Numbered from the stretch's first letter, positions 6,164-59,633 are shown. The stretch is DNA of 64,000 bases from an uncultured Acidobacteriota bacterium (GCA_963798215.1 CAWCSP010000004.1:702159-766158); one strand, 5' to 3'. Notes: a model not told the origin generated them from the letters alone. A program made the numbers and translations.

Positions 6164-6219
6164 GGGACGCATAAGATCTGACGTTCACCGCGAGGTGCGA
6201 ACGTCCGGTGTCAATCGCC

Positions 6220-24905: not shown

Positions 24906-25294
24906 TCCTGCTCGATACGTCCGTGCTCATCGAGGCCCTCGCGGGTCCCAAGCGGTCCGCGACCGCCCTGCGCGCTGCCATCGAGCGGGGCGAGCGGGTG
25001 CTTGTCCCGGCGCTCGTCCTGTACGAATGGTTGAGGGGCCCGAGAAGGCCCGAGGAGCTGAGAGCTCAGGAGGCGCTCTTCCCGCGAGAGTTCGCCATCC
25101 CGTTCGGCCCGCACGAGGCCGTGCTGGCCGCGAACCTTTACGCCAGAGTGCGAAGGGCGAGAGGCCGGGAGATCGACCTTGCGATCGCCGCGTGCGCGCT
25201 GGCCAGGGGTGCGGATCTCTGGACCCTCAACCTGGAAGACTTCCGGGACATTCCGGATCTGCGAGCCTCGGCGCCGGGCTCCGCTCGGCCCTGA
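24902..25294 (+). CDS. vapC: PIN-domain toxin VapC
   Basis: From GTG 24902: VILLDTSVLIEAL...; conserved acidic residues D5 and E/D ~100 (WTLNLEDF). Confidence 0.7.
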   Translation: MILLDTSVLIEALAGPKRSATALRAAIERGERVLVPALVLYEWLRGPRRPEELRAQEALFPREFAIPFGPHEAVLAANLYARVRRARGREIDLAIAACALARGADLWTLNLEDFRDIPDLRASAPGSARP

Positions 25295-29322: not shown

Positions 29323-29350
29323 TTGTGACGTCCTGCGTTCATGCCTTGCC

Positions 29351-30493: not shown

Positions 30494-30513
30494 CCTCTCC
30501 TCCAGTCCTTTGA

Positions 30514-31338: not shown

Positions 31339-31434
31339 CGCGTCGGCACTGAATCGGACAGCATGGTGACCTCTGAGTGGGAATCTAGCGACGAGGCCCT
31401 GCCGCCGACATTCCCCGTTTGGGGGATGGCGGAC

Positions 31435-41150: not shown

Positions 41151-44027
41151 TCAGGGGCGCGTCGCGCGCTCGACGAGGTGGACGAAGGACCGGTACCGCT
41201 CGCCCGTCGCGCGCGACAGGCCCGCTTCGCACGTGCGGCTGGACGACCAGTGTCCCGCGCCGCCGCCCGCACCCGCCTCGCGCACCTGCGCAGCCTCGAG
41301 TCGCGTGGCCGAGGCCGTCAGCTCCGGGAAGAGGAAGCCGCGGTCGCCCGCGAAGCCGCAGCAGCCGGCGTCCGGCGGGACCGTCGCGCTCTCGGCGCAC
41401 GCGCGGGCCACGGCTTCGAGCTTCGGGACGAGGCCCATCTTCACGAGCGAGCAGACCGGGTGCAGGACGGCCGCCGGCTGCTTCTTCGTCACGGCGAGCT
41501 TCGGGAGCAGCACGTCGTGGACGAACGCAACGCCGTCGAGGATCGTGAGCGCGTCGAAGCGCGCCTTGTTCTCGTCCGTGAGCGCCTCGCGCGCGTGGAG
41601 GAGCCCGTACGTGCACGGGCTCGTGTCGACGAAGACGGGCAGCTTTCCGCCGTCCGACCAGCGCCAGAAGTTCACGATCGCGCGGTTCGCGGCGATCGCG
41701 TGCGCCTCGGTGTAGCCCTTGGACGAGAACGGGACGCCGCAGCACGTCCCCGCGGCGTCGGGAGGCACGTGGACTCTCACGCCGGCGCGCGCCGCGAGCG
41801 CGACCATCGTGTCGACGAGCGGCGGCGCGTCGCCGTCGCCGGCCTCGGGCCCCATCGTTCGCGAGAGGCATGACGGGAAGTAGATCGCCTGTGCGCCCTC
41901 CCGGGACGTCTTCGTCCGCGGGGTGGCCGCGGCGCGCGGCATCTCCGCGCTCCACTGCGGGAACGGCCCGCCCGAGATCGCCTTCAGCGCCTTCGTCAGG
42001 CCCGTCATCGCGCGCGCCCCGAAGAGCGACTGAACGGCGTGACCCGCGCGTAAACCCGTGCGGAGCGCCGGCTCGACGAGGGCAAACGAGCGTGCGACGA
42101 GCGCGGCGGTCCGGCGCGAGGCGGCCGAGTGGCGGACGGCGCGGAAACGCTTCGTGAGCATCCCCGTGTCGATCTTGACCGGGCAGGCGGTCGCGCAGAG
42201 GCCGTCCACGGCGCACGTGTCGAGCGCCTCGTACGGGAAGTCGGCCTCGAGGCTGGCCCTGAGCACGGCGTCGGCCCGCGTCTCGTCCAGGCGGGCGATC
42301 TCGCGGCGCACGACGATGCGCTGGCGCGGCGTGAGCGTCAGGTCGCGGCTCGGGCACTGCGGCTCGCAGAAGCCGCACTCGATGCAGCGATCGACCTCGT
42401 CCTCGACCGACGGGATCGGCTTGAGGTCCTTCAGGTGCGCGCGCGGGTCGGCGTTCACGAGGACGCCGGGATTCAGGAGGCCGGCGGGGTCGGCCAGCTC
42501 CTTGAGGCGTTTCATGACGGCCCAGGCCTCATGGCCCCACTCCGTTTCCACGAACGGCGCCATGTTCCGGCCCGTGCCGTGCTCGGCCTTCAGCGCCCCG
42601 TCGTAGCGCTCGACGACGAGCTTGACCACGTCGTCGATGAAGCGTGCGTACTGGTCGACGGCGCGGCGGTCGCGGAACGACTGCGAGAGGACGAAGTGGA
42701 GGTTCCCGTCGCGCGCATGGCCGAAGATGATCGCGTCGGCGTAGCCGTGCACGCCGAAGAGCGCGTTGAGGTCGACCGCGGCGTCCGCGAGGCGGTCGAT
42801 CGGGAACGCGACGTCCTCGATGATGACGGTCGTCCCGCTCTTCCTCACGGCGCCGACGGACGGGAACATGCCCTGCCGGACGCGCCAGAGGCTTGCCTGC
42901 TCGGCCGGGTCGTGCGTGAAGCGCGCAGGCTCGACGAGCGTGAGCGCCCCGCTCGCCGTCGCGGCGACGCGCCCGAGCTCCACGCGCTCGTCCTCGCCCG
43001 CGGCCTGGAACTCCGCGAGGAGGCCCGCGGCGCCCGGGGGCAGCGACTTCAGCGCCTCGGGCACGCCCGGCTCGTTCTCGACCGAGCGCAGCGCCGCGCG
43101 GTCCATGACTTCGAGCGCCTTGGCGCCGGCGTCGTTCAGCGGAACGATCGCGGCGCAGGCCGCGTGGAGGTTCGGGAAGAGGAGGAGCCCCGTGACCTTC
43201 ACGGGGAGGTCGGGCACGGTCTTCAGGACGGCCTCCGCGACGAACGCGAGCGTCCCCTCCGACCCGACGAGGAGCTGCCGGAAGAGGTCCACGGGCCGGT
43301 CGTAGTCGAGGAACGCGTTCAGCGAGTAGCCGGTCGTGTTCTTCGTCCGGTACTTCGCCCGGACGCGCGCGGCGAGCGGCGCGTCGGCGCGCACGCGGTC
43401 GCGCAGGTCGAGGAGGCCCTGCCAGAGCGCGGGCTCCTTCGCGCGGAAGAGGTCGTCCGCGTCGGGGCGCGCCGTGTCGATCTCGGTGCCGGAAGGGAGG
43501 AGGAACGTGAGCGATTCGAGCGTGTGGTACGCGTTCTGCGCGACGCCGCAGCACATCCCGCTCGCGTTGTTCGCGACGATTCCGCCCACCGTGCACGTCG
43601 CGATCGACGCGGGGTCCGGCCCGATCTTCCGGCCGTACGGCCGCAGGGCGCGGTTCGCGTGGGCGCCGATCACGCCCGGCTGAACGCGGATCCGCGCGCC
43701 GTTCTCCTCGACGGAAAGGCCGCGAAAGAGGCGCGCCGTCTCGACGAGGACGCCGTCCGTGATGGACTGGCCCGAGAGGCTCGTTCCGGCGGAGCGGAAA
43801 ACGAGCGGGACGCCGTGGGCGCGGGAGACCTCGAAGAGGCGCCGCACCTCGTCCGCGCTCTTCGCGTGGACGACGGCGGCCGGGACGAGGCGGTAGAAGC
43901 TCGCGTCCGACGCCCACGCGACGCGGTCGATCGCGCGCGTGAGGAGGCGGTCTTCGCCGACGACGGCCTCGAGAGCGCCGGCGAGGGATGTCGCGGGACG
44001 TTGGGCGCGGGTGGCGGCCGTCGACAT
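41151..44027 (-). CDS. dld: FAD-binding and Fe-S-binding D-lactate dehydrogenase (Dld-II type; GlcD + 4Fe-4S + CCG fusion)
   Basis: 958 aa; FAD-binding PCMH domain, then two ferredoxin motifs CIECGFCEPQCP / CAVDGLCATACP, then Cys-rich CCG repeats. Divergent from lutABC. Confidence 0.85.
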   Translation of the reverse strand: MSTAATRAQRPATSLAGALEAVVGEDRLLTRAIDRVAWASDASFYRLVPAAVVHAKSADEVRRLFEVSRAHGVPLVFRSAGTSLSGQSITDGVLVETARLFRGLSVEENGARIRVQPGVIGAHANRALRPYGRKIGPDPASIATCTVGGIVANNASGMCCGVAQNAYHTLESLTFLLPSGTEIDTARPDADDLFRAKEPALWQGLLDLRDRVRADAPLAARVRAKYRTKNTTGYSLNAFLDYDRPVDLFRQLLVGSEGTLAFVAEAVLKTVPDLPVKVTGLLLFPNLHAACAAIVPLNDAGAKALEVMDRAALRSVENEPGVPEALKSLPPGAAGLLAEFQAAGEDERVELGRVAATASGALTLVEPARFTHDPAEQASLWRVRQGMFPSVGAVRKSGTTVIIEDVAFPIDRLADAAVDLNALFGVHGYADAIIFGHARDGNLHFVLSQSFRDRRAVDQYARFIDDVVKLVVERYDGALKAEHGTGRNMAPFVETEWGHEAWAVMKRLKELADPAGLLNPGVLVNADPRAHLKDLKPIPSVEDEVDRCIECGFCEPQCPSRDLTLTPRQRIVVRREIARLDETRADAVLRASLEADFPYEALDTCAVDGLCATACPVKIDTGMLTKRFRAVRHSAASRRTAALVARSFALVEPALRTGLRAGHAVQSLFGARAMTGLTKALKAISGGPFPQWSAEMPRAAATPRTKTSREGAQAIYFPSCLSRTMGPEAGDGDAPPLVDTMVALAARAGVRVHVPPDAAGTCCGVPFSSKGYTEAHAIAANRAIVNFWRWSDGGKLPVFVDTSPCTYGLLHAREALTDENKARFDALTILDGVAFVHDVLLPKLAVTKKQPAAVLHPVCSLVKMGLVPKLEAVARACAESATVPPDAGCCGFAGDRGFLFPELTASATRLEAAQVREAGAGGGAGHWSSSRTCEAGLSRATGERYRSFVHLVERATRP

Positions 44028-44153: not shown

Positions 44154-44897
44154 ATGGCGGATCGGCCCAGGGCGGTTTACTTCTTCGGCACCTGCGTCGT
44201 GGATCTCTTCTTCCCCGAGGCGGGCCTCGCGGGGATCGAGCTGCTGCGCCGCGAGGGCCTCGAGGTCGTCTTCCCGCCCGGCCAGACGTGCTGCGCCCAG
44301 CCCGCGTTCAACTGCGGCCATCACGAGGAGGCGCGGGCCGTCGCGCGCGCGCAGATCGCGCTCTTCCCGCGGGACCTGCCCGTCGTGGTGCCGTCGGGCT
44401 CGTGCGCCGGGATGATGAAGCACCACTACCCGGACCTCTTCGCGGGCGAGCCCGACGAGGAGGCCGCCCGCTCGTTCGCGGGGCGCGTCGTCGAGCTGAC
44501 GCAGTTCCTCGTGAACGTCCTCGGCGTGCGCCTGACGGACCGTGGGACGCCCGTGAAGGTCACGTGGCACTCGTCCTGCCACGGCCTCCGTGAAATGGGC
44601 CTCGACGCCGAGCCGAAGGCGCTCCTGTCGCAGCTCGCGAACGTCTCCGTCTCCCCGCTCGAGCGCGAGCGCGAGTGCTGCGGCTTCGGCGGGACGTTCT
44701 CCGTCCGCTACCCCGACATCTCGTCCGCGATGGTCGACGACAAGACGGCCGACGTCGAGAGGACCGGGGCGTCCGTCGTCCTCTCGGCGGACGCGGCGTG
44801 CCTGCTGAACATCGGCGGGGCTCTCGAGAAGAAGGGCGCCTCCGCGCGGCCGATGCACCTCGCCGAGTTCCTCTGGGAGCGGACCCGTGAGCGCTGA
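44154..44897 (+). CDS. lutA: lactate utilization protein A, (Fe-S)-binding CCG-domain protein
   Basis: 247-aa C-terminal part of ORF 42129..44897 from ATG 44154; two CCG motifs (...TCCAQPAFNCG..., ...ECCGFGGTF...). Confidence 0.8.
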   Translation: MADRPRAVYFFGTCVVDLFFPEAGLAGIELLRREGLEVVFPPGQTCCAQPAFNCGHHEEARAVARAQIALFPRDLPVVVPSGSCAGMMKHHYPDLFAGEPDEEAARSFAGRVVELTQFLVNVLGVRLTDRGTPVKVTWHSSCHGLREMGLDAEPKALLSQLANVSVSPLERERECCGFGGTFSVRYPDISSAMVDDKTADVERTGASVVLSADAACLLNIGGALEKKGASARPMHLAEFLWERTRER

Positions 44898-46323
44898 GAC
44901 TCGTCCCGCCGACTTTCACGCCTCGTCCTCGCGTGCGCTCCGCGACCCGAAGCTGCGGGCGAACTTCCGCCGCGCGATGGACGGCCTCATGGCCAAGCGC
45001 GCCGCGCTGTTCGCGGACCCGGCCGAGTGGGAGGCGCTGCGCGCGCTCGCGGCCTCGATCCGGGCGCGGACGCTCGCGAAGCTGCCGGACCTCCTCGAGA
45101 AGCTGGAAGCGAAGTGCGCGGCGAACGGGATCCAGGTCCACTGGGCCGAGACGGCGGACGACGCGAACGCGATCGTCCTCGGGATCCTCCGCGCGCGCGG
45201 CGCGACGCGCCTCGTCAAGGGCAAGTCGATGGTCTCCGAGGAGATGCATCTCAACGACTTCCTCGAGAAGAACGGCGTCGAGAGCCTCGAGAGCGACCTC
45301 GGCGAGTACATCATCCAGCTCGACGGCGAAACGCCCTCGCACATCATCATGCCGGCGATCCACAAGAGCCGACAGCAGATCGCGCGCCAGTTCGCGGAGA
45401 AGATCAAGGGCGCCGTCTACACCGAGGACGTCGACGCGCTCACGGCCACGGCGCGCCGCGTCCTGAGAAAGAAGTTCTTCGAGGCGGACGCGGGCATCTC
45501 GGGCGTCAACTTCGCGGTCGCCGAGACGGGCTCGCTCTTCCTCGTCGAGAACGAGGGCAACGGGAGGATGTCGACGCACGTCCCGCCCGTTCACATCGCG
45601 CTCATGGGCCTCGAGAAGGTCGTCGAGAAGCTGGACGACGTCGCACCGCTCTACACGGTCCTCACCCGCTCGGCGACGGGCCAGTCCGTGTCGACGTACC
45701 TGAACGCGATCTCCGGGCCGCGGGGCGCCGGCGAGAAGGACGGACCGCACGAGGTCCACCTCGTGATCCTCGACGCCGGCCGCTCGAGAATCTTCGCGGA
45801 CGCGGCCATGGCCCCGACGCTCCGCTGCATCCGCTGCGGCGCCTGCATGAACCACTGTCCCGTCTACACGCGCGTGGGCGGCCACGCGTACGAGGCCGTC
45901 TACCCGGGCCCGATCGGCTCGATCCTGACGCCGCAGATGGAGGGCCTCGCCGCGCGGCACGACCTCCCGCACGCCTCGAGCCTCTGCCATGCGTGCGTCG
46001 AGGTCTGCCCCGTGCAGATCCCGATCACGCAGATCCTCGTGACGCTCCGCAAGGAGTCCGCCCGTTCCTCGCCGGACTTCAAGGTGAAGGACGCGGGAGG
46101 CGGCCGCGACCGCCTCGAGGACCTCGCGTGGGCCGGCTGGCGGATGGCGCACGCCTCGCCGCTCCTCTACCGGGCGATGGGCGCCGCGCTGCGCGTCTTC
46201 GGGCCGCTCGTCAAAGGCGGCCCGGGCCCGCTGAAGGCCTGGACGCAGTCGCGGACGCTGCCGCGCCGGGCGTCGCACACGCTGCACGAACTCGCGCGAG
46301 AGAAGGGGCTGCCCGATGCCTGA
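44887..46323 (+). CDS. lutB: lactate utilization protein B (LUD domain + 4Fe-4S)
   Basis: 478 aa; CIRCGACMNHCPV and CHACVEVCPV motifs; GTG start overlapping lutA. Confidence 0.85.
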   Translation: MSAETRPADFHASSSRALRDPKLRANFRRAMDGLMAKRAALFADPAEWEALRALAASIRARTLAKLPDLLEKLEAKCAANGIQVHWAETADDANAIVLGILRARGATRLVKGKSMVSEEMHLNDFLEKNGVESLESDLGEYIIQLDGETPSHIIMPAIHKSRQQIARQFAEKIKGAVYTEDVDALTATARRVLRKKFFEADAGISGVNFAVAETGSLFLVENEGNGRMSTHVPPVHIALMGLEKVVEKLDDVAPLYTVLTRSATGQSVSTYLNAISGPRGAGEKDGPHEVHLVILDAGRSRIFADAAMAPTLRCIRCGACMNHCPVYTRVGGHAYEAVYPGPIGSILTPQMEGLAARHDLPHASSLCHACVEVCPVQIPITQILVTLRKESARSSPDFKVKDAGGGRDRLEDLAWAGWRMAHASPLLYRAMGAALRVFGPLVKGGPGPLKAWTQSRTLPRRASHTLHELAREKGLPDA

Positions 46324-46969
46324 CGCGCGCGCGAACATCCTCGGCCGCCTGCGCGCGGTCGCGCCCTCCGCGCCGCCGGCGTCGGACTTCTCCGTCGTCG
46401 AGAGGAAGACGTGGACGCCGGCCGCGCGCCTCGAGCGCTTGCGCGCCGCGATGGCCGCCGTCCACACGGAGTTCCTCGACGCGACCGCGGACGGATGGCC
46501 GGAAACGGTCCGCGCGTTCCTCGTCGCGCAAGGCGCGAAGAACGTTGCGCTCGGGCCCGCAACCCCGGCCGGCCGCCTCCTCGCCGAAGCCTGCACGCGC
46601 GCGGGCGCGCCGGCCGTCGTCCCGTACGACCGGCCCGTCGAGGAGTGGAAGTCCGAGCTGTTCGACGGGATCGATGCCGGCTTCACGTCCGTGAGGAGCG
46701 CGATCGCCGACACGGGCTCGCTCGTCCTCTGGCCGTCGCCGGAGGAGCCGCGACTCCTGTCGCTCGTGCCGCCGCTCCACGTCGCGCTCCTCTCGGCAAG
46801 GGCGATCCGCGACACGCTCCTCGGGGTCATGCGCGAGGAGGGCTGGGCGAAAAGCCTCCCGCCGAACGCCCTACTCGTGTCGGGGCCGAGCAAGACCGCC
46901 GACATCGAGCAGACGCTCGCCTACGGCGTCCACGGCCCGAAGCGCCTCGTCGTCGTCGTCGTGCCCTGA
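46316..46969 (+). CDS. lutC: lactate utilization protein C (LUD domain)
   Basis: 217 aa; ATG overlaps the lutB stop; LUD/YkgG-like. Confidence 0.75.
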
Positions 46970-46983
46970 TACGCTCGTCCGCG

Positions 46984-48399
46984 ATGGGCCGCTCTCTCCT
47001 CTCGAAGGTCTGGGACCTCCACGCCGTCCGCAAGCTCCCGACGGGGCAGACGCAGCTCTTCGTCGGCCTGCACCTCGTTCACGAGGTCACGAGCCCGCAG
47101 GCTTTCGCGATGCTGAGGGAGAAGGGCTGGAAGGTCGCGTTCCCGTCGCGCACCGTCGCGACCGTCGACCACATCATCCCGACGACCAGCGTCGCGCGCC
47201 CCTTCGCGGACGCTCAGGCCGAGGAGATGCTCGCCTCCCTCCAGCGCAACACGAAGGACTTCGGCGTCCCGCTCCACGACCTCGGCGCGCCGGAGCAGGG
47301 CATCGTGCACGTCATCGGCCCGGAGCTGGGCCTCACGCAGCCCGGGATGACGATCGCGTGCGGCGACAGCCACACGTCCACGCACGGCGCGTTCGGGGCG
47401 CTCGCGTTCGGGATCGGGACGTCGCAGGTGCGCGACGTCCTCGCCTCGCAGTGCCTCGCGATGGACCCCATGAAGCTCCGCCGGATCGACGTGACGGGCC
47501 GCCTCGCCCCCGGCGTCTACGCCAAGGACGTCATCCTCGCGATCATCCGGACGCTCGGCGTCAAGGCGGGCGCCGGCTACGCGTACGAGTACGGCGGCGA
47601 GGCCGTCTCCGCGATGTCGATGGACGAGCGCATGACGCTCTGCAACATGTCGATCGAGGGCGGCGCGCGCGCCGGCTACGTGAACCCCGACGCGACGACG
47701 TTCGCGTACCTGAAGGGCCGCCCCGCCGCGCCGAAGGGCGAGGCGTGGGAGCGGGCCGTCGCGCTGGTGGCGCGTCGATGGCGTCGGACGCGGACGCTGC
47801 CTACGACAGCCGGGCGACGCTGGACGGCGCCGCGCTCGAGCCGCACGTCACGTGGGGGATCAACCCCTGCGCAGAGCGCGAGCGTCTCCGGGCGCGTCCC
47901 GAAGGCGGCCGACGCGGCCGCCGGTGACCGCACGCAGGTCGCCGAAGCGCTCGAGTACATGGGCTTCGCCGGCGGCGAGGCGATCGCGGGGACCAAGATC
48001 GACGTCGCCTTCATCGGCTCGTGCACGAACGGGCGCCTGTCGGACCTGCGCGAAGCCGCGCGCGTCGTGAAGGGCCGGAAGGTCGCGAAGGGCGTCAAGG
48101 CGCTCGCGGTCCCGGGCTCGAACGCGGTCAGGCTGGCTGCTGAAAAAGAGGGAATCGACGTCGTCTTTCGGGAGGCGGGCTTCGAGTGGCGCGGCGCCGG
48201 CTGCTCGATGTGCCTCGCGATGAACCCGGACCGGCTGGAGGGGCGGCAGGTCTGCGCGTCCTCGTCCAACCGCAACTTCAAGGGCCGGCAAGGGAGCCCG
48301 ACCGGCCGGACGCTCCTCATGAGCCCCGCGATGGTCGCGGCGGCCGCCGTCGCGGGCGCGGTGACGGACGTGCGTGCTCTCCTCGGGGGAGCGCGATGA
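46984..48399 (+). CDS. leuC: 3-isopropylmalate dehydratase large subunit; two compensating frameshifts in this sequence
   Basis: From ATG 46984 (the ORF-track N-terminal extension was rejected). The conserved segment ...[31 protein letters not shown] is encoded in a different frame between about 47766 and 47858. Frame returns at a CCCC run 47864-47867. Confidence 0.8.
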
Positions 48400-49002
48400 G
48401 CCTGCCCGCGATCCGCCGTCTGGCCGGAACGGCGCGCCCGCTCGTCGGCGACGACATCGACACGGACCGGATCATCCCGGCGCGTTTCCTCGTCTCCGTC
48501 ACGTTCGACGGCCTCGGCGCGCACGCGTTCGAGGACGACCGGAAAGCCGCGAAAGCCCGCGGCGGGATGCACCCGTTCGACGACCCGCGTTACGCCGGCG
48601 CGAGCGTCCTCCTCGTGAACCGCAATTTCGGCTGCGGGTCCTCGCGCGAACACGCGCCCCAGGCGCTCGCCCGCGGCGGTCTCAAGGCCGTGCTCGGCGA
48701 GTCGTTCTCGGAGATCTTCTTCGGGAACTCCGTCGCGATCGGCCTGCCGTGCGTCACGCTTCCCGCACGAGGCGGTCGCGATGCTTCAGGCGCTCGTCGC
48801 GACGGACGCGTCGGTGCTGTTCGCCCTCGATCTCGAGTCGCTGACGCTCGCGGCCGGGGGAGCGGCGTTTCCGGTGTCGATGCCGGAGAACGCGCGCCAG
48901 GCATTCCTGACGGGGCGCTGGGACGGCACGTCGATGCTCCTCGACCGCTTCGAGGCGGTCGAGGAGCTCGCGAAGCGCCTGCCTTACGTCACCGGGTTCT
49001 AG
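48396..49002 (+). CDS. leuD: 3-isopropylmalate dehydratase small subunit; one frameshift in this sequence
   Basis: ATG overlaps the leuC stop (ATGA). The N-terminal 123 aa are in the frame of ORF 48186..49133. The C-terminal 73 aa (...[24 protein letters not shown]...VTGF) are in ORF 48781..49002. The shift is at CCCG 48762-48765. Confidence 0.75.
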
Positions 49003-49011
49003 TTCAGGAGC

Positions 49012-50118
49012 TCACGGGAAGCGGAAGACGGCCACCACGCCCGAATGGTCGGACGCGAACGTGGGGATGTCCGGGATCGGCGGCATGGCGGCGAAAGCGA
49101 GATCCGAGCCGACGATCTCCATGCCCTTCGTGAAGAAGAGGTCGATTCGCTCGAAGGGGACCGAGGGCGCGAAGAAGGGGGGCGGGAGACCGCCTCCGGG
49201 GAACTGGTCCTCCAGGTAGTACGGCCAGGTGAGCCCCTTGTCGCCGACAGCGTGCGTCGCCGGCCAGACCTCGGTGTAGCCCGCCGCCTCGATGAGGCCG
49301 ACGGTCGGCGTGTCGTCCACGGAGGGGCCGACGTCGCTCGCGTCCGCGTTTAAGTCGCCGCAGATCACGACGGGAATCGTGAGGTTGCGGAGCTCGTGAA
49401 TCAGCTCCAGCGCCTGCGCCTCCTGCACGAGCGCAGCTTCCTCAATGCCTTCGATCGGCGTTTCGAGGTGGGTCGTGACGAAGCGGAACTGCCTGTTGCC
49501 GACGTGGACGTCGGCGGAGATCCAGCCCGCCTTGACCGTCAGCTGCTCGGTGAAGGGGAAGGCCGCGTCGAACGCGCGCGCGTGCACGTTGGAGAGATGG
49601 AACTGCGGGGGGCGAAGGTCGGACCGGATGAGCACGGCGTTCCGGTCGGTGAAGCGCAGGGCCCCGATGAGATTCCCCGGGAGGGCGAGATCGCTCAGGT
49701 GGTTCACCGCGACGACGTCGTACGGGACGCCCGCGGATCGGAGCGCCGAGACGAGCATGGCAAGCAGGTCGAACTCGACCTTCGTCGCGGTCTCCGGGGT
49801 GAGCCCGGATCGCCAGAGCGCCGCCTCCTGGATGGCGACGATTTCAGGGTGTTTCGTGGCGATCACACCGGCCATCTTGGCGGCGCGCAATTCGAACGCG
49901 GAATACTGGAGCTCGAGATACGTCAGATCGACGGCCTGCTCCACGGTCGCGGGGAACTGACCCGTCAGGACGCCGATGATGTACGTCTGGTCCGTCCCGT
50001 CGTCCATGTTCTGGGTCATGATCGTCACGGGCGGGTTGGCGTCGGGTTTAGCGGCGTCGGTTCGGAACGCGAGGATTGCGAAGGCACAAACCACAAGGGC
50101 CGCGAGCTTTCGCAGCAT
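49012..50118 (-). CDS. endonuclease/exonuclease/phosphatase (EEP) family secreted protein
   Basis: Signal peptide [18 protein letters not shown] (ATG 50118; an upstream ATG at 50160 is possible); EEP-like motifs ...VAIQEAAL..., ...ICGDLNAD..., ...FASDHSGV. Confidence 0.6.
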
Positions 50119-50270
50119 GAGTCCTCCTTGCTGGCTCGGGGCTCTCCGGAGGTCAGGCACGTATCCGAACAGGACACCGGAGCCGACCTCGGGTCAGTGC
50201 TCAACACATGGGGGCACGGCCGCCGCCCGGCCCTGATGCACCTGAATCAGGCCCGCCGACGACACCGCAT

Positions 50271-51158
50271 TCATCCCGCGGCCCGCTCTTTCCGCACCAT
50301 CTCCAGGAATGCGTGGGCCGCCGGGCCGAAGTTGCCCGCGGCCCGGTAGACGAGGCGGAGGTCGCGCGGGCGGCGCAGCTCCGGCAGCGTCGAGGCCGCG
50401 AGGCGTCCGGACTCGAGCTCGGAGAGCGCCGTCCGGCGCGGGAGGAGCGCGACGCCCATCCCGCGCTCGACGGCGCGCTTGACGGCGTCGAGGCTCGGGA
50501 GCGAGACCTTGATGTTGAGCGGCGTCCCGCGCTCGGCGTACGTGTTGAGGACGCGCTCGCGCGCGGGCGAGCGGTCGCCGTGCGCGATGACGGTCTCGGC
50601 GCCGAACTCCTGCAGCGTCACGCGGACCCGTTTCGCGAACGGGTGCGAGGGATGGGAGAGGACGACGAGCTCGTCCGACGCGAGGACGACGGTCTTGAGC
50701 CCCTCCTCGGCCGGCACGAAGGCGACGATGCCGAAGTCGAGCGCGACCGCGAGGACCTCGGCTCCGAGAAGGCGCGACGGCGAACGCTTCACCTCGAACT
50801 CGACGCCGGGATGCGTCTCGCGGAAGCGTCCGATCAGCGGGAGGAGGACCTCCAGACCCGCCTCGTTCGCGCCGATCACGACGCGCCCGTGCCGGAGGTC
50901 GCGCAGCTCGCGCACGGCTCGCTCGGCCTCCTCCGTCACGGCGAGGACGCGCCGCGCGTGCTCGAGGAGGGTTTTCCCGGCCTCCGTGAGGCGCACGTCG
51001 TGCGTCGTCCGGTCGAAGAGGTCGGCCTTGAGCTCGTCCTCGAGACGGCGCACCGCCTGGCTCACGGCGGACTGCGTCCGGAACAGGCGCACGGCCGCCT
51101 TCGAGAAGCCGCGCTCCTCGGCGACGGCCAGGAAAACGCGCAGCCCGGCGACGTCCAT
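50271..51158 (-). CDS. LysR-family transcriptional regulator, divergent from the ilv-leu operon
   Basis: 295 aa from ATG 51158: MDVAGLRVFLAVAEERGFSKAAVRLFRTQSAVSQAVRRLE (LysR HTH) plus a LysR substrate-binding domain. Confidence 0.8.
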   Translation of the reverse strand: MDVAGLRVFLAVAEERGFSKAAVRLFRTQSAVSQAVRRLEDELKADLFDRTTHDVRLTEAGKTLLEHARRVLAVTEEAERAVRELRDLRHGRVVIGANEAGLEVLLPLIGRFRETHPGVEFEVKRSPSRLLGAEVLAVALDFGIVAFVPAEEGLKTVVLASDELVVLSHPSHPFAKRVRVTLQEFGAETVIAHGDRSPARERVLNTYAERGTPLNIKVSLPSLDAVKRAVERGMGVALLPRRTALSELESGRLAASTLPELRRPRDLRLVYRAAGNFGPAAHAFLEMVRKERAAG

Positions 51159-51186
51159 AAGTAATGCTAATAATAATAGAAAGACT

Positions 51187-51318
51187 ATGAGTTTGAAGAA
51201 TTCCTTCGAATGCGGTCCAATTCGCGCCGTGATGGTTCTCGCCCGCATCGCCGTTCCCGTCCTTCTGCTTTCGAAGGAAATTTCTCTCGTCCTTACGGAG
51301 AGACAGGCGGCGAGCTGA
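51187..51318 (+). CDS. putative ilv-leu operon leader peptide (43 aa, 15 Ile/Val/Leu)
   Basis: [45 protein letters not shown]-rich, uses rare att/gtt/ctt/ttg codons. Its stop lies 28 nt before a terminator hairpin. Confidence 0.4.
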
Positions 51319-51346
51319 CGGGAAACGAGAAACACATCAGCCAGCC

Positions 51347-51373
51347 GCCCCGCAGACGCGGGGCTTTTTTTTT
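51347..51373 (+). terminator. intrinsic terminator / attenuator hairpin (gccccgc-agac-gcggggc followed by T9) 30 nt upstream of ilvD
   Basis: 7-bp GC stem, 4-nt loop and 9 consecutive T, read directly from the sequence. A possible antiterminator pairing is ggcggc 51306-51311 with gccgcc 51344-51349. Confidence 0.55.
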
Positions 51374-51403
51374 GGACCGGATTTCGAGGAGGTCATCGGG
51401 AGC

Positions 51404-53116
51404 GTGAAGAGCGACGCGATCAAGAAAGGCCCGGCGCGGGCTCCCGCGCGCGCGATGCTGCGCGCGACCGGCCTGACGCCCGCCGATCTGGAGAAGCCGC
51501 TCGTGGCGGTCGTCCACCCGTGGACGGACCTCGGCCCGTGCAACTTCACGCTCCGCGCGCTCGCCGAGGAGGTCAAGGCCGGCGTCCGCGAGGCCGGGGG
51601 CACGCCCTTCGAGTTCGGGACGATCGCGATCTCCGACGGGATCTCGATGGGCACGGACGGGATGCGCGCCTCGCTCGTCTCGCGCGAGGTCATCGCGGAT
51701 TCCATCGAGCTGGCCGTTGCGGGCCACGCGCTCGACGCCGTGGTCGCCCTGTGCGGCTGCGACAAGACGATCCCGGGCGCCGCGATGGCGCTCGCGCGGC
51801 TGGACCTCCCGTCGGTCGCGCTCTACGGCGGCTCGATCGAGCCCGGGAAGGTTGCGGGGAAGGACGTCACGATCCAGGAGGTCTTCGAGGCGGTCGGCGC
51901 GCACGCGGCCGGGACGATCTCCGACGCGATGCTCTGCGACGTCGAGGCGGGCGCGTGCCCCGGCGCGGGAGCGTGCGGCGGGCAGTTCACGGCGAACACG
52001 ATGGCGCTGGCGCTGACGTTTCTCGGGCTCTCGCCGATGGGTGCGAACGACGTCCCGGCGACCGACCCCACGAAGGCGGGCGTGGCCCGCGCGGCGGGCC
52101 GCCTCGTGATGGAGCGTCTGAAGGACGGCCTGACGCCGTCGAAGATCCTGACGCGGGCCGCGTTCGAGAACGCGATCGCGTCCGTCGCCGCGGCAGGCGG
52201 CTCGACGAACGCCGTCCTCCACCTCCTCGCGATCGCGCGGGAAGCGGGCGTCCCGCTCTTCCTCGACGACTTCGACGCGATCTCGGCGCGGACGCCGCTC
52301 TTCGTCGACCTCAAGCCCGGCGGCCGCTTCACGGCGCCGGACCTCGCGCGCGCGGGCGGCTCGCGCCTCGTCGCGCGGCGCCTCGTGGAAGCGGGCCTCG
52401 TGAAGAACGCGAAGACGGTCACGGGCCGGACGCTCTTCGACGAGGCGAAGGACGCCGTCGAGACGCCGGGGCAGGAGGTCGTCCGCCCGGTCGCGAAGGC
52501 GCTCAAGCCGCACGGCGGGCTCGCGATCCTGCGGGGCACGCTCGCGCCCGAGGGCGCGGTCGTGAAGCTCGCGGGCCACGAGCGGATGCGCCACACCGGC
52601 CCCGCGCGCGTCTTCGACGGCGAGATCGCCGCGTTCGCGGCTGTCCAGAAGCGCGAGGTCAGGGCAGGCGACGTCGTCGTGATCCGCAACGAGGGGCCGA
52701 AGGGTGCGCCGGGAATGCCCGAGATGCTCGCCGTGACGGCGGCGCTCGTCGGGCAGGGTCTCGGCGAGTCGGTCGCCCTCGTGACGGACGGCCGCTTCTC
52801 CGGCGCCACGCACGGCTTCATGGTCGGCCACGTCTCGCCCGAGGCGGCGGCGGGCGGGCCGATCGCGTACGTGAAGGACGGCGACCCCGTGACGCTCGAC
52901 GTCGTCGCGCGCCGCCTCGACGTCGAGATCGGCGAGGACGACTTCGCCGCGCGCCGCCGGGCGTACCGCGCCCCGGCGCCGCGCGCGACGTCCGGCGCCC
53001 TCGCGAAGTACGCCCGCCTCGTCTCGTCCGCCTCCGAGGGCGCCGTGACGGGGACGTTCGCGGGGGTCGCGGCGTCCGATGCGGCGGTGACCGTTTCCGC
53101 GGGGAGGACCGCGTGA
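51404..53116 (+). CDS. ilvD: dihydroxy-acid dehydratase
   Basis: 570 aa from GTG start; ...CGCDKTIPG..., ...[19 protein letters not shown]... (Fe-S Cys), ...[22 protein letters not shown]... Confidence 0.95.
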
Positions 53117-54825
53117 CCGCACAGGCGAAGGCCCAGCCGCAGACCCGCACGAGCGCCGCGCGCGCCATGGCGGACGAGCTCGTTGCGCTCGGCGTGACCC
53201 ACATCTTCGGGCACCCGGGCGGCGCGGCCCTGCCGCTCTACGACGCGCTCCACGGATCGCCGATCCGGCACCTCCTCATGCGGCACGAGCAGGGCGCCGC
53301 GCACGCTGCGCAGGGGTACGCGCGCGCGACGGGCCGTCCCGGCGTCTGCCTCGCGACGTCCGGCCCGGGCGCGACGAACCTCGTGACCGGCCTGACGGAC
53401 GCGATGATGGACTCGACGCCCGTCGTCGCCCTGACGGCGCAGGTCGCCACGTCGCTCCTCGGCCGCGACGGCTTCCAGGAAGCCGACATCGTCGGGATGA
53501 CGCAGAACGTCACGAAGCACAACTGGCTCGTCCTCGACCCGGACGAGGTTCCCGGCACGATCCGCCACGCGTTCCGCGTCGCGGTCTCCGGCCGCCCCGG
53601 TCCGGTCCTCGTCGACGTGCCGCGCGACGTCCTGCAGGGCGAGACGTCGTGGGAAGGCCCAGACGCCGAGCCCGCGGAAATCCTGCGCCGCGCGGACGCC
53701 GTGTCGCTCCGCCGCGCCGCGTTCGCGATCTCGAACGCGCGCCGCCCGGTCCTGTACGTGGGCGGTGGCGTGATCTCGTCCGGGGCCTCGGCCGAGGTGC
53801 GGCGCCTCGCGTGCAAGGCGCGCATCCCCGTCACGACGACGCTCATGGGCAAGGGCGCCTTCCCCGAGACGGACGCGCTCTCGCTCGGGATGCTCGGGAT
53901 GCACGGCACCGCCTACGCGAACTGGGCGATGCACGACGCCGACCTCATCATCGCCCTCGGCGCGCGTTTTGACGACCGGATCACGGGCAAGCTCGCCACG
54001 TTCGCGCCACACGCGAAGGTCGTCCACCTCGACGTCGACCCCGTCGAGATCGGGAAAAACCGCAAGGCCGACTTCCCGCTGCACGGCGACGCGAAGACCG
54101 TCCTCCGGCAGCTCCTCCCGCTCGTCGGCGCCCCGCACACGAACGGCTGGCTCGAGAAGATCGCCGCGTGGAAGGCCGAGGCGCCGCTCGCCTACGAGCA
54201 GACGGGCGACGTCATCCTCCCGCAGTTCGCGATCGAGACGCTCTGGAAGATGACGCGGGACCGGCGCCCGATCGTCACGACGGACGTCGGCCAGCACCAG
54301 ATGTGGGCCGCGCAGTTCTGGAAGTGCGACGAGCCGAACACGTTCGTGACGTCCGGCGGCCTCGGGACGATGGGCTTCGGCCTGCCGGCCGCGATCGGCG
54401 TGCAGTGCGGGATGCCGGACCGCCTCGTGATCAACCTGAACGGCGACGGCAGCTTCCAGCAGACGATGCAGGCGATGGCGACGGCCGTCGAGGAGAAGCT
54501 CCCGATCAAGGTCGTCGTCCTCGACAACCAGAACCTCGGGATGGTCCGCCAGTGGCAGGACCTCTTCTACGAGCGCCGCTTCTTCGCGGTCGAGCTCCGG
54601 AACCCCGACTTCGCGAAGCTCGCCGAGGCGTTCGGGGCGGCCGCGTTCCGCGTGAGCCGTCCCGAGGAGCTCGTCCCGGCGTACGAGGCCGCGCTCGCCG
54701 TGAACGACCGCCCCGCGCTCGTCCACGTGCGGACGGACGGCAACGAGAACTGCTACCCCATGTGGCCCGCGGGCCAGTCCATCGATTCGATGGTGGTGTC
54801 GGACCCGCGGAAGAAGAAGAGCTGA
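53113..54825 (+). CDS. ilvB: acetolactate synthase large (catalytic) subunit
   Basis: 570 aa from GTG 53113 (GTGA overlap with ilvD); TPP motif ...[35 protein letters not shown]... Confidence 0.9.
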
Positions 54826-54835
54826 GGAGGCTGAG

Positions 54836-55120
54836 ATGCAAGAGACCTATGAAATCAAGGCGAAGGATGCTCCCGGTCTTCTGGCAAGGGTCGAATCACT
54901 CTTCAGGCGCCAGCGCGCGCCCATCCGGAGCTTTTTCTTCGAAGGGTGTGAAGGCGGTCCGGTCGCGAGGCTCGTTCTCGTCGCGGAAGCCGACGAGGAG
55001 CGCTCGAATCTCCTTCAGAAGCAGCTCTTGCGCCTCGAGGACGTGATCGAGGTCGTCCGGTCGCGCGACGCCGTCGCCTTCGCGCAGCCCGAATTCACCT
55101 TCGAAGAAAGAACAGCCTAG
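54836..55120 (+). CDS. ilvN: acetolactate synthase small regulatory subunit, short ACT-only form
   Basis: 94 aa. The ACT domain aligns with IlvH/IlvN residues 1-80, but the C-terminal domain is missing. The gene ends inside an AT-rich repeat-motif cluster. Confidence 0.55.
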   Translation: MQETYEIKAKDAPGLLARVESLFRRQRAPIRSFFFEGCEGGPVARLVLVAEADEERSNLLQKQLLRLEDVIEVVRSRDAVAFAQPEFTFEERTA

Positions 55121-55185
55121 AAGGTTGAGAGAAGGCCGCTCGCAGCGCGCCGGCGGCGCCCAGCCCCTTTCCACCTTCTAAGAAA
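55094..55185. repeat. cluster of three motif copies at the ilvN 3' end and ilvN-ilvC intergenic region (55094-55108 reverse; 55116-55128 forward, degenerate; 55173-55185 reverse) forming a stem-loop-capable inverted pair
   Basis: ttcaccttcgaagaa / cctagaaggttga / caccttctaagaa, read from the sequence. Confidence 0.5.
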
Positions 55186-55232
55186 AATAGCATCACCTGA
55201 GCCAAACCATCAACACGACGAGGATCGAAGAC

Positions 55233-56247
55233 ATGGCGACAATCTGGTACGACAAGGACGCCGACATCTCCCGCCTCAAGGGGCGGACGGTCGCGATCAT
55301 CGGTTACGGCAGCCAGGGGCACGCGCACGCCCTGAACCTCCGCGACAGCGGGGTCTCGGTCGTCGTGGGCCTCCACGCGACGTCGAAGTCCGCCGCGAAG
55401 GCGAAGGCCGAGGGGCTGACGGTCCTGCCGGTCGACGAGGCCGCGAAGCGCGCGGACGTCGTCATGATCCTGACGCCCGACACGGGCCAGAAGAAGCTCT
55501 GGGACGAGTCGATTGCGCCGCACATGAAGGCCGGCAAGACCGTCATGTTCGCGCACGGCTTCAACATCCGCTTCGGCCAGATCGTGCCCGCCGCACGACG
55601 TGGACGTGTCGATGGTCGCGCCGAAGTCGCCGGGCCACCGCGTCCGCGAGCTGTACGTGGAGGGCGCGGGCACGCCGGCGCTCCTCGCCGTCGAGCAGAA
55701 CGCGACCGGCCACGCGCGCGAGGACGCGCTGGCCTACGCGAAGGCGCTCGGGACGACGCGCGCCGGCGTCCTCGAGACGACGTTCGCCGAGGAGACGGAG
55801 ACGGACCTCTTCGGCGAGCAGGCCGTCCTCTGCGGCGGCACGTCCGCGCTCGTGAAGGCCGCGTTCCAGACGCTCGTCGACGCGGGCTACCAGCCGGAGG
55901 TCGCGTACTTCGAGTGCCTCCACGAGCTGAAGCTCATCGTCGATCTCATGTACCGCGGCGGTCTCAACTACATGCGTTACTCGATCAGCGACACGGCCGA
56001 GCACGGCGACTACACCGCGGGTCCGCGCATCGTGACGGACGCGACCCGGCGCGAGATGAAGAAGATCCTCGAGGAGATCCAGGAGGGCGTCTACGCCGAG
56101 AACTGGATCGCCGAGAACCGAGCGGGCCGCCCGAACTTCGAGGCGACGCGCGAGAAGGAGCGGACCCAGCTCCTCGAGACCGTCGGCGCGGAGCTGCGCG
56201 AGAAGATGCCGTTTCTCCATCCCGTCCGCATCGGGAAGGTGGCCTGA
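55233..56247 (+). CDS. ilvC: ketol-acid reductoisomerase; one frameshift in this sequence
   Basis: The N-terminal 118 aa ([36 protein letters not shown]...[12 protein letters not shown]) are in frame 0. The remainder ([22 protein letters not shown]...) is in ORF 55600..56247. The shift is at CCCG 55587-55590. Confidence 0.85.
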
Positions 56248-56248
56248 C

Positions 56249-57529
56249 ATGAGCGCGGAGGGCGACGTCCGGCACCGCATCGCGATCTTCGACACGACGC
56301 TCCGGGACGGCGAGCAGGCGCCGGGCTTCTCGATGCGCGAGGCCGAGAAGGTGCGTCTCGCCGTCAAGCTCGACGAGCTCGGCGTCGACATCCTCGAAGC
56401 CGGGTTCCCGGTCGCCTCGGAGGACGACTTCTCCGGCGTCCGCGCCGTCGCGAAGGCGGTCCGCCGGCCGGTCGTCGCGGCGCTCGCGCGCGCCGTGGAC
56501 GCGGACGTGGACCGCGCGCTCGAGGCCCTCGACGGGTGCGCCCGTCCGCGCCTCCACACGTTCATCGCGACGTCCGACCTCCACCTTTCGCACAAGCTCC
56601 ACATGTCGCGCGGCCAGGCGCTCGAGGCCGCGGCTCGCGCGGTCGCCCGCGCGCGCCGCCACGTCGACGACGTCGAGTTCTCGGCCGAGGACGCGACGCG
56701 CAGCGACGTCGGATACCTCTCGGCCGTCGTGGGGGCCGTGATCCAGGCGGGCGCGACGACCGTGAACCTGCCGGACACGGTTGGCTACTCGACGCCCGAC
56801 GAGATCTACAGGTTCTTCACCACGATCCGGGCGAGCGTCGCCGGCGCGGACCGCACGGTCTTCTCGGCGCACTGCCACAACGACCTCGGCCTCGCGGTCG
56901 CGAACAGCCTCGCGGCTCTGGAGGCCGGCTGCCGGCAGATCGAGTGCACGGTGAACGGAATCGGCGAGCGCGCGGGCAACGCGTCCCTCGAGGAGATCGT
57001 CATGACGCTCCGTGTGCGGCCCGACAAGCTGCCGTTCACGACCGGGATCGTCCCGGGCGAGATCTACGCGGCGAGCCAGCTCCTCACCGAGCTCACGGGC
57101 GAAGCCGTCCAGGCGAACAAGGCGATCGTCGGCCGCAACGCGTTCGCGCACGAGGCGGGCATCCACCAGGACGGCATCCTTAAGGACCGCCGCACGTACG
57201 AGATCATGCGTCCCGAGGACGTCGGCGTGCCGAGGACGACGATGGTCCTCGGCAAGCACTCCGGCCGCCACGCGCTCAAGGCCCGCTGCGAGGCGCTCGG
57301 GATCATCCCGGCCCGCCACGAGCTCGACGACCTCTACCGCCGGATGATCGCGCTCGCGGACCGGCAGAAGGTCGTGCACGACCGGGACCTCGTCTCGCTC
57401 TGGTCGGCGATGAAGCGCGCGCCCGCGGCGCGTCCCTCGCACCACGTCGTGCCGATCCGGCCGGCGGCGGCGCACCGAAAGGAGGACGCGCCCGCGGCCG
57501 AGGAAGCCGGCTACGGGTACGGAGTCTGA
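56249..57529 (+). CDS. leuA: 2-isopropylmalate synthase / citramalate synthase family, short form without the LeuA regulatory domain
   Basis: 426 aa; HMGL-like TIM barrel with ...[10 protein letters not shown]..., ...[16 protein letters not shown]..., ...HEAGIHQDG... Confidence 0.8.
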
Positions 57530-58654
57530 ATGGGGAAGCGCGCGCGCATCGCGGTCCTGCCGGGCGACGGCATCGGTCCGGAAGTGACGGCGGGAGCCGT
57601 CGCCGTCCTGAAGGCGGTCGAGGCGCGCTTCTCTCACACGTTCGTCCTCTCCGAGTGGCTCGTCGGCGCGCGCGCCCTGCGCGAGAAGGGGACGCCGCTG
57701 CCCGAGGACACGCTCGTCGCGTGCAAGGACGCGGACGCCGTTCTCATGGGCGCCGTCGGCGACCCGGCGTACGACCTGGCTCCCCGGGACCAGCGGCCCG
57801 AGTACGGCCTCCTCCAGTTGCGCAAGGCGCTCGGCGCCTACGCGAACATCCGGCCGGCGCGCCTCTACCGTGCGCTCGCGGACGCGGGCCCGCTCAAGCC
57901 CGAGGTCGCGCGCGGCCTCGACCTCGTCGTCGTGCGCGAGCTGACGGGAGGGCTTTACTTCGGGACGCCGCGGTCCGTCGACCTCGCGGCGGGGACGGCC
58001 GTGAACACGCTGCCGTACACGCGCATGGAGGTCGAACGCATCGCGGAGATGGCGTTCCGGCTCGCGGCGACGCGGCGGAACAAGGTGACGTCGGTCGACA
58101 AGTCGAACGTCCTCGAGACGTCGCAGCTCTGGCGCGCCGTCGTGACGGAGGTGGGAAAACGCCACCCGGACGTCACGCTCGAGCACCAGCTCGTGGACTC
58201 GTGCGCGATGAACCTCGTCCTTTTCCCGTCGGCGTTCGATGTGGTCGTGACCGAGAACCTCTTCGGCGACATCCTGTCCGACGAGTGTGGCGCGCTCGTC
58301 GGCTCGCTCGGGCTCCTGCCCTCGGCGAGCCTCGGCGACGGTCCCGGCCTCTTCGAGCCCGTGCACGGCTCGGCGCCGCAGATCGCGGGCCGCGACCTCG
58401 CGAACCCGATCGGCGCGATCGCGACGGCCGCAATGCTCCTCGGGGACGGGCTCGGCCTGCACGAGGAGGCGGCCGCGGTCCACCGGGCGATCGAGGCCGC
58501 GCTCGAGAAGGGCGCGCGCACGGCCGACCTCGCGCAGAAGAGCACGCGCGCCCTCGGGACGCGCGAGATGACACGGGCGATCGCCGACGAGATCGCCGCC
58601 GCAACGACGTCGATGGCGCCGGGCCGCGAAGCGGCCTCAGGGGCGCCGCAGTGA
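57530..58654 (+). CDS. leuB: 3-isopropylmalate dehydrogenase
   Basis: 374 aa; ...VDKSNVLETSQLWR..., ...NLFGDILSDE..., ...GSAPQIAGRDLANPIGAI...; ATG directly abuts the leuA stop. Confidence 0.9.
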   Translation: MGKRARIAVLPGDGIGPEVTAGAVAVLKAVEARFSHTFVLSEWLVGARALREKGTPLPEDTLVACKDADAVLMGAVGDPAYDLAPRDQRPEYGLLQLRKALGAYANIRPARLYRALADAGPLKPEVARGLDLVVVRELTGGLYFGTPRSVDLAAGTAVNTLPYTRMEVERIAEMAFRLAATRRNKVTSVDKSNVLETSQLWRAVVTEVGKRHPDVTLEHQLVDSCAMNLVLFPSAFDVVVTENLFGDILSDECGALVGSLGLLPSASLGDGPGLFEPVHGSAPQIAGRDLANPIGAIATAAMLLGDGLGLHEEAAAVHRAIEAALEKGARTADLAQKSTRALGTREMTRAIADEIAAATTSMAPGREAASGAPQ

Positions 58655-58658
58655 GGCT

Positions 58659-59633
58659 GTGATGGGAATGGAATCGAAGTGGATCTGGAAAGACGGCGAC
58701 CTCGTGCCTTACGAGGACGCGACGCTGCACTTCCTCACGCCCGGCCTTCACTACGGGATCGGCGTCTTCGAGGGAATCCGGTGCTACGCGACGAAGGCCG
58801 GCCCGGCGATCTTCCGGCTCCCGGAGCACATCCGGCGCCTGAGGCTCTCCGCGAAGGCCCTGGGCTTTGACGCGCTGCCGTTCTCCGAGGAGGAGCTCGT
58901 CGAGGCGACGAAAGAGACGGTCGCGAAGAACGGCTTCTCCGAGTGCTACATCCGCCCGATGATCTGGCTCGACGGCGGCGGCTGGAACCTGAACCTCGAC
59001 GGCGGCAAGCCGGCGATCGGGATCGCGGCGTGGGAGTGGAAGAACTACCTCGGCGAGGCGGCGCTCGAGAAGGGCGTGCGGGCGAACGTCTCGTCGTTCA
59101 CGCGCCACCACCCGAACGTCTCGATGACGAAGGCGAAGATCAGCGGCAACTACGTGAACAGCTTCCTCGCGAAAACGGAGTCCGTTCGGCTCGGCTTCGA
59201 CGAGGCGATCATGCTCGACCCGAACGGGTACGTTGCCGAGTGCACGGGCGCGAACCTCTTCGTCGTCAAGGACGGGCGCATCGTCACGACGCCGTCCGCT
59301 CCGATCCTCGAGGGGATCACGCGCGACACGCTCCTCGCCCTCGCGAAGGAGCTCGGCTACGAGGTCGTCGAGCAGGCGATCGCGCGCGACCAGCTCTACA
59401 TGGCCGACGAGGTCTTCGTCTGCGGGACGGCCGCCGAGTGCGTCGCACTCCGCGAGGTGGACTTCCGGACGATCGGGGCGGGCGTCACCGGACCGGTCAC
59501 GCGGGCGCTCCAGAAGGCGTACCACTCGGCGGTGCGCGGCGCGCATGCGCGCTCGAAGGAATGGTGCTCTCCGGTCCGCGAGGCGCGGCGGTACCCGGCT
59601 CCCGTCCGGCTCGTCCGCGCCCGGCGCCGCTGA
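58659..59633 (+). CDS. ilvE: branched-chain amino acid aminotransferase
   Basis: 324 aa; ...GLHYGIGVFEGIRCY..., ...SMTKAKISGNYVNS... (PLP Lys), ...EVFVCGTAAEC... Confidence 0.85.
   Translation: MMGMESKWIWKDGDLVPYEDATLHFLTPGLHYGIGVFEGIRCYATKAGPAIFRLPEHIRRLRLSAKALGFDALPFSEEELVEATKETVAKNGFSECYIRPMIWLDGGGWNLNLDGGKPAIGIAAWEWKNYLGEAALEKGVRANVSSFTRHHPNVSMTKAKISGNYVNSFLAKTESVRLGFDEAIMLDPNGYVAECTGANLFVVKDGRIVTTPSAPILEGITRDTLLALAKELGYEVVEQAIARDQLYMADEVFVCGTAAECVALREVDFRTIGAGVTGPVTRALQKAYHSAVRGAHARSKEWCSPVREARRYPAPVRLVRARRR

Follow-up and report, generated by a model that had tools for sequence, protein, structure and literature searches.

We analyzed a 64,000-nucleotide (nt) stretch of DNA from an uncultured Acidobacteriota bacterium (GCA_963798215.1, CAWCSP010000004.1:702159-766158), hereafter called the window, which carries a cluster of genes for leucine and isoleucine/valine biosynthesis (the leu/ilv genes). 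Three genes of the cluster, all on the plus strand, are interrupted by changes of reading frame: leuC (46984 to 48399), coding for the large subunit of 3-isopropylmalate dehydratase; leuD (48396 to 49002), coding for its small subunit; and ilvC (55233 to 56247), coding for ketol-acid reductoisomerase. They were recognized by translation and profile matches, with leuC also aligned to its homologs and translated in three frames. The frame changes were traced to five extra bases, which, judging from the sequence comparisons below, are very probably errors in the consensus of a metagenome assembly.

The interrupted reading frames

The reading frames were followed with a codon-usage model trained on the long open reading frames (ORFs) of the window, whose G+C content is 70%. 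After Viterbi decoding over all six frames, each same-strand frame switch was screened for whether the upstream frame ended at a stop codon there. Stop-less switches occurred at only four places in the 64 kb, namely 47769/47770 and 47868/47869 in leuC, 48758/48759 in leuD and 55592/55593 in ilvC; the remaining same-strand switches were normal gene boundaries. An initial annotation had put four frameshifts in these genes, two of them in leuC. It was right about the places but not about the count: an alignment with a near-identical contig (the sibling, described below) and with eight species-level relatives gave five single-base insertions as the true coding lesions, three in leuC and one each in leuD and ilvC. 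Three genes are thereby broken among about 58 in the window. The peptides quoted in that annotation for the different frames of leuC, leuD and ilvC were reproduced by three-frame translation, with LPCVTLP (leuD) and GQIVP (ilvC) each continuing one frame over.

As deposited, leuC is one open ORF of 471 codons, in which codons about 261 to 295 are out of frame. It stays open because its shifts cancel. The resulting stretch of 35 amino acids (aa) is unrelated to 12 aligned homologs, and the conserved block W-W-x-S-x-A-S-D ... E-P-x-V-T-W-G-I-N-P is missing from the frame of the deposited ORF and present in another frame. The first extra base is a G at 47763, inside GC^C TGG, where all 9 other sequences (the sibling and 8 species) have a gap. 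This site falls in CCTGG. The second is either C47773 or G47774: the four bases are CGCG in the window and CGGC in the sibling, against three in the 8 other species. From this site onward, the leuC of the sibling is frameshifted too. The third is T47868 or G47869, 3' of CCCC at 47864 to 47867, where all 9 other sequences again have a gap; it brings the ORF back into frame, and in comparison with the sibling it is most simply a G after CCCCT (47869). The stretch in which the true frame is offset from the ORF frame extends from 47764 to 47869 according to translation and to the Viterbi segment at 47770 to 47868, in frame +2. The entry into this stretch had been taken for a missing base. The alignment of the 9 orthologous DNAs showed instead that G47763 and, 10 nt further on, C47773/G47774 are extra; a pair of insertions shifts the frame as one deletion does, hence the apparent -1 shift.

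With the three bases taken out, LeuC has 470 aa, as in the 12 aligned LeuC sequences. The repaired protein matched TIGR00170 with 619 bits (cut-off, 560) over profile positions 1 to 465 of 466 and NF004016 with 715 bits (cut-off, 510), the Pfam family for LeuC being PF00330. It was 94% identical to the closest intact homolog among the best 120 listed. In exact protein look-ups, the deposited leuC ORF and several alternative fragment starts had no exact match on record.

leuD is split in two frames by one extra T of CTT (48760 to 48761), 5' of CCC at 48762 to 48764; the sibling and 7 other species are one base shorter at this site. The public record holds only a 73-aa C-terminal fragment of LeuD (P0362), located solely on the 3,673,862-bp source contig, which is in NCBI and ENA. 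The repaired LeuD has 201 aa and is, residue for residue, the LeuD of the sibling. It scored 176 bits against NF002458 (cut-off, 167; profile positions 4 to 194 of 202) and fell just under the cut-off of TIGR00171 (105.6 versus 116.25); its Pfam family is PF00694.

ilvC is likewise split in two frames, here by a G at 55590 that breaks CCCCC into CCC G CC, a stretch one base shorter in the sibling and in 5 other species. A 211-aa C-terminal fragment (55612 to 56247; P0392) is on public record, again only on the source contig. Because the LeuD and IlvC fragments are recorded on that contig, the frameshifts are part of the deposited sequence. The repaired IlvC, of class I, has 337 aa and matched NF004017 with 539 bits (cut-off, 336; profile positions 1 to 329 of 337) and TIGR00465 with 445 bits (cut-off, 226), the Pfam families being PF07991 and PF01450. 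It was 99% identical to a homolog (P0241). The repaired lengths of 470, 201 and 337 aa are those of almost all of the best 120 homologs listed per gene. A scan of JGI contigs for the ilvC site with an exact pattern gave no match; a degenerate pattern found five contigs from other species (82 to 92% identical), all with the 29-nt form that lacks the extra base.

The initial annotation had placed three of the four shifts at C-runs. These do adjoin short C-runs, but compared with the sibling the extra bases are not C (G at 47869, T at 48760 and G at 55590). Removing one C from each run, the repair that had been proposed, yields the same or a near-identical protein.

Comparison with the sibling contig and with relatives

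The sibling is contig_32982 of ENA ERZ25039489 (455,609 bp), which was found by exact-protein look-ups as four overlapping pieces (L001, L004, L005 and L007). It is colinear with the whole window, from which it differs by 241 substitutions over 63.7 kb (99.6% identity). Orthologs from eight species were obtained from a GTDB genome scan, where the best match was at 86% among the matches listed. The closest species-level genomes, among these matches, are mostly Microflora Danica metagenome-assembled genomes (MAGs) with Flye-style contig_NNNNN names, like that of the sibling, and the homologs are named as belonging to Thermoanaerobaculia or Acidobacteriota MAGs.

Relative to the sibling, the window has extra bases at 47763, 47869, 48760, 50250, 55590 and 62986 and none in the first 47.7 kb. 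The positions 50250 and 62986 are intergenic. Together with the decoding of the frames, this upholds the earlier observation that no other gene of the window is disrupted. Whether orthologs in related genomes have the same indels was a check that had been suggested: the sibling lacks four of the five coding insertions and the two intergenic ones, and none of the five was found in the species-level relatives aligned. The fifth site, at 47773/47774, is aberrant in both assemblies, spelled CGCG in the window and CGGC in the sibling, where the 8 other species have three bases. The different spelling suggests that the consensus went wrong repeatedly at this third-position C/G site, since shared ancestry would need two further adjacent substitutions.

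According to its gene calls, the sibling has intact leuD (201 aa) and ilvC (337 aa). It has lesions of its own instead. An extra A at window position 53423 breaks its ilvB, which is intact in the window, and its napA has five +1 insertions within 330 nt (63352 to 63681). In the sibling, napA (63257 to 63704, minus strand) also shows a dozen substitutions in about 450 nt and is split into pieces of 99 and 727 aa; in the window, it is open in a single frame over 63257 to 63704. In this napA patch of the sibling, too, the consensus is poor. With three to four housekeeping genes privately broken per 64 kb in each of two near-identical genomes, the lesions point to assembly quality rather than to biology.

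More haplotypes of this species were found in public data. Contigs of ERR12035936 (L002, L006 and L009) are 99.8 to 100% identical to the window and side with it at most variable sites; they carry the allele of the sibling at 9099 and a private dinucleotide at 6217 to 6218. Given the mix of alleles in ERR12035936, there are at least three haplotypes of the species in public data, and a fourth, in ERZ27241286 (L003), is 98.7% identical. The ERR12035936 contigs end before every lesion, with L009 leaving a gap of 272 nt between its end at 55318 and the ilvC site.

The codon differences between the window and the sibling in leuC, leuD and ilvC taken together were 16 synonymous and 4 nonsynonymous. 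The intact neighbors were similar, with 8:3 for ilvD and 6:1 for ilvE. The synonymous bias indicates that leuC, leuD and ilvC were under purifying selection throughout the divergence of the window and the sibling.

All seven window-private indels are +1 insertions. Compared with the sibling, three coding insertions out of five bring in a base that neither neighbor has (GC^C and CCCCC each gain a G, and CG^G a C or G); replication slippage does not have this result. Private insertions of the two assemblies had on average 1.8 single-nucleotide polymorphisms (SNPs) within 30 nt on either side; in a permutation test against the expected mean of 0.23, P was about 0.0007. Of the window-private insertions, 4/7 have a run of at least three Cs no more than 2 nt away, versus 11% of window positions (binomial P, about 0.004). 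Four of the five coding insertions of the window can be read as two synonymous third-position alleles in tandem (GCG/GCC, CGC/CGG, CTT/CTC and CCC/CCG), and the fifth as TCG/GCG, at a position where relatives have S, A or G. This tandem-allele reading is suggestive only. In both leuD and ilvC, the insertion stands directly 5' of a common 9-mer, CCCGCACGA (48762 to 48770 and 55589 to 55598, respectively), which truly occurs only five times in the window, twice at an insertion. By eye, no common sequence or methylation motif was evident across all 14 private insertions.

The clustering of lesions in leu/ilv genes, which had been called striking, is indeed above chance, with P between 0.004 and 0.02 depending on the null model. 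When independent events in both assemblies were counted, leu/ilv genes accounted for 5/7 while covering 16% of the window (P = 0.0016). Polymorphism at 47 to 64 kb is several-fold above that at 7 to 29 kb or 32 to 46 kb, and the concentration is partly due to this SNP density.

Neighboring genes and strain-variable segments

The other genes of the cluster, also on the plus strand, are ilvD, ilvB and ilvN (51404 to 55120), which are intact in the window and have profile matches, and leuA, leuB and ilvE (56249 to 59633), which are intact in both the window and the sibling. LeuA (56249 to 57529), also recorded on the source contig, is a short form of 426 aa and covers only positions 4 to 384 of the 516-position model of 2-isopropylmalate synthase, so that it appears to lack the regulatory, leucine-binding domain at the C terminus. 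Its close relatives all have 426 to 432 aa. Upstream, a lutABC-like operon for lactate utilization (CCG, LUD_dom/4Fe-4S and LUD_dom; 44154 to 46969) ends 15 nt before leuC, and ahead of it, on the opposite strand, lies a gene for a 958-aa protein resembling a flavin adenine dinucleotide/Fe-S D-lactate dehydrogenase (41160 to 44027).

The two intergenic insertions differ in setting. The extra G at 50250 is located in the spacer between an Exo_endo_phos gene and a LysR gene, flanked by two double mismatches to the sibling; the extra T at 62986 is located in the T/C-rich DNA that separates napA from napB, just downstream of the former. A 293-bp segment of the window (49853 to 50145), which encodes the signal-peptide-like N terminus of the Exo_endo_phos protein on the minus strand, is absent from the sibling, whose copy has 290 aa versus about 369 to 382 aa in the window. 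Either the strain of the sibling has really lost the segment, or the sibling is misassembled here.

Elsewhere in the window, four tandem paralogs of an ABC-transporter substrate-binding protein (PF04392; 25348 to 29324) of about 330 aa each are all preceded by a near-identical upstream sequence, cggacaaggtgatcga. The second copy of the sibling is truncated by a C5-to-C4 change at 27234. Between 30000 and 31450, a hypervariable patch with nearly identical flanks accounts for 69 of the 241 sibling substitutions and contains several compensating indels (30.2 to 31.3 kb). It covers a gene for a 380-aa protein with no Pfam match (29353 to 30495, minus strand) and a GerE-type regulator gene (30516 to 31364, minus strand), and looks like a recombined or fast-evolving strain-specific segment. 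The frame decoder also raised suspects at 2634 to 2684, 8325, 8529, 12071, 24858, 29140 to 29353 and 30398 to 30516, which were ordinary boundaries or intergenic according to the gene calls of the sibling. The possible frameshift flagged at 24624 to 25294 was a normal two-gene toxin-antitoxin pair, in which a PIN-domain toxin gene (130 aa) shares 4 nt with a small antitoxin-like ORF of 93 aa.

Origin of the extra bases

The source organism is an uncultured soil bacterium of the Thermoanaerobaculia (Acidobacteriota), and a source contig of 3.67 Mb from such an organism implies a long-read metagenome assembly. We consider it very probable that the extra bases in leuC, leuD and ilvC are consensus errors of such an assembly made from mixed strains, and the living cells most likely have all three genes intact. 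Reads of several close strains, perhaps also of related species in the case of very conserved genes, would be merged into one consensus. Differences between haplotypes at nearby sites, together with short C-runs, would shift the read alignments, and the polisher would then keep one base too many. Several insertions look like both alleles of a synonymous SNP set side by side, GC[G/C], CG[C/G], CT[T/C] and CC[C/G]. In Microflora Danica, Nanopore-only assemblies were made with Flye and polished with one round of Medaka, and microdiversity was named as a limit on genome recovery (PMC12313526). In the collapsed-haplotype assembly of a diploid parasite, close allelic variants led to wrong read alignments, insertion-deletion errors and apparent frameshifts (PMC8445201).

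Sequencing or assembly error was one of the two readings offered in the initial annotation, and it is favored by lesions that are private to the assembly, by a sibling that has leuD and ilvC intact and other lesions of its own, and by substitutions that are mostly synonymous. The type of error named there, a change in homopolymer length, does not fit: the comparison with the sibling shows a different base inserted beside C-runs of 3 to 5 nt, in SNP-dense patches, a picture in keeping with consensus errors from mixed strains.

Several observations weigh against consensus error from mixed strains. The case is built on assembled contigs and is thus an indirect showing, and the source study and the platform (Nanopore with Flye and Medaka, on data of the Microflora Danica type) are themselves ones that we infer. 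Of the six window-private insertions that were scored (47773 was unscored), the three at 47869, 55590 and 62986 have no SNP within 30 nt, so that strain mixing does not visibly account for each insertion. Tandem synonymous alleles fit 9/12 coding insertions of the two assemblies, versus 0.48 under the null model, which is not significant (P = 0.054). The 9-mer shared by the leuD and ilvC sites could reflect a context-specific error of basecalling or polishing or a modified-base motif. Finally, the concentration in leu/ilv genes is still somewhat high after weighting by SNP density (P, about 0.02). As a conjecture, this residual excess may come from reads of related species recruited to very conserved genes during polishing; identity to relatives is 94% for LeuC and 96 to 99% for IlvC.

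The other reading of the initial annotation, early decay of branched-chain amino acid biosynthesis, was not supported, as the lesions are private and the substitutions show a synonymous bias. It would make leuC, leuD and ilvC genuine early pseudogenes, inactivated very recently in an emerging auxotroph fed by its community, and we regard it as very unlikely. The lesions do stand in the deposited sequence, with fragments of LeuD and IlvC on record for the source contig; a single pathway is affected, with three genes out of about 58; and the deposited leuC product lacks about 15 residues that are invariant or nearly so. The 16:4 ratio, however, gives no sign of relaxed selection, whereas five neutral indels should have been accompanied by tens of mostly nonsynonymous substitutions. 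Bacterial mutation is biased toward deletions. Here only insertions were found, and three of the five inserted bases are unlike either neighbor, so that slippage did not produce them. The six other genes of the cluster (ilvD, ilvB, ilvN, leuA, leuB and ilvE) are intact. The lesions of the sibling in leuC, at the same spot, and in ilvB can be read as decay begun in a common ancestor, but the two assemblies spell the "shared" leuC lesion in different ways, and the five insertions within 330 nt of the sibling napA show an error process in such data that is independent of the pathway. Moreover, the lesions were not seen in independent genomes (the sibling, 8 species and five JGI contigs), and the fragment proteins are found on the source contig only. 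It is very improbable that this free-living strain was sampled at most a few thousand generations from the loss of leucine and isoleucine/valine biosynthesis, through multiple hits confined to leuC, leuD and ilvC, while the sibling loses leuC and ilvB in parallel. A passage in one paper notes that apparent frameshift pseudogenes may be technical artifacts (PMC11017572).

Slightly less probable still is that the consensus picked real frameshift alleles of minority variants, so that the sequence would be chimeric, though built from real haplotypes, rather than wrong. Several haplotypes of this species do co-occur or recombine, and the lesions are located in SNP-dense patches. Such an origin needs five separate loss-of-function alleles in three genes under purifying selection; it meets the same oddities, insertions only and no slippage, and no independent contig has any of the five. 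Programmed recoding, in which ribosomal +1 frameshifting or transcriptional slippage at C-runs would restore the proteins, is effectively excluded because no ortholog has a frameshift to recode at 47763, 47869, 48760 and 55590, where 9 orthologous DNAs, including that of the 99.6% identical sibling, are in a single frame; although three sites adjoin short C-runs and two share the 9-mer downstream, programmed frameshift sites are conserved among relatives, leuC would need three events within 107 nt, and the sequence gave no evident sign of a stop or rare codon, or of a prfB-type stimulator resembling a Shine-Dalgarno site upstream.

Taken as a consensus error, the feature is an ordinary assembly artifact. 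At face value, the genome would be annotated without LeuC, LeuD and IlvC and wrongly scored as a branched-chain amino acid auxotroph. The pattern, with insertions only, beside short C-runs and in strain-variable patches, may help to spot and repair errors in long-read MAGs, and the recurrence at one polymorphic codon in two assemblies is a further part of this diagnostic pattern. Were the lesions real, they would mark a very early pathway loss, with community-dependent auxotrophy arising in soil; the evidence is against this.

Three known systems offer a comparison. Frameshift pseudogenes of amino acid biosynthesis in genome reduction are similar in that disrupted ORFs are gathered in a dispensable biosynthetic pathway; they differ in that here there is no relaxed selection and no deletion bias, the lesions are absent from a 99.6% identical sibling and the rest of the operon is intact. 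Indel errors of long-read (Nanopore or PacBio) assemblies, which polishing and frameshift-aware annotation are meant to deal with, are also similar: they are single-base changes, private to one assembly, which split genes and give a full-length protein once removed, and closely related genomes come from a Nanopore-only pipeline with Flye and Medaka. Nanopore errors of the textbook kind alter the length of long homopolymers, mostly by deletion. In contrast, all changes here are insertions, the runs are 3 to 5 nt long, the inserted base is usually unlike the run in comparison with the sibling, and the long runs of the window (T9, T8 and C8) are the same as in the sibling. The artifacts of collapsed haplotypes (Cosentino et al. 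2021, PMC8445201) were described in a diploid eukaryote with two known haplotypes, whereas here co-occurring bacterial strains, whose presence in the sample is deduced, would play this part. The window resembles them in the enrichment of insertions in SNP-dense patches and in the look of tandem alleles, and the two assemblies compared here err at one polymorphic codon with the alleles in opposite order.

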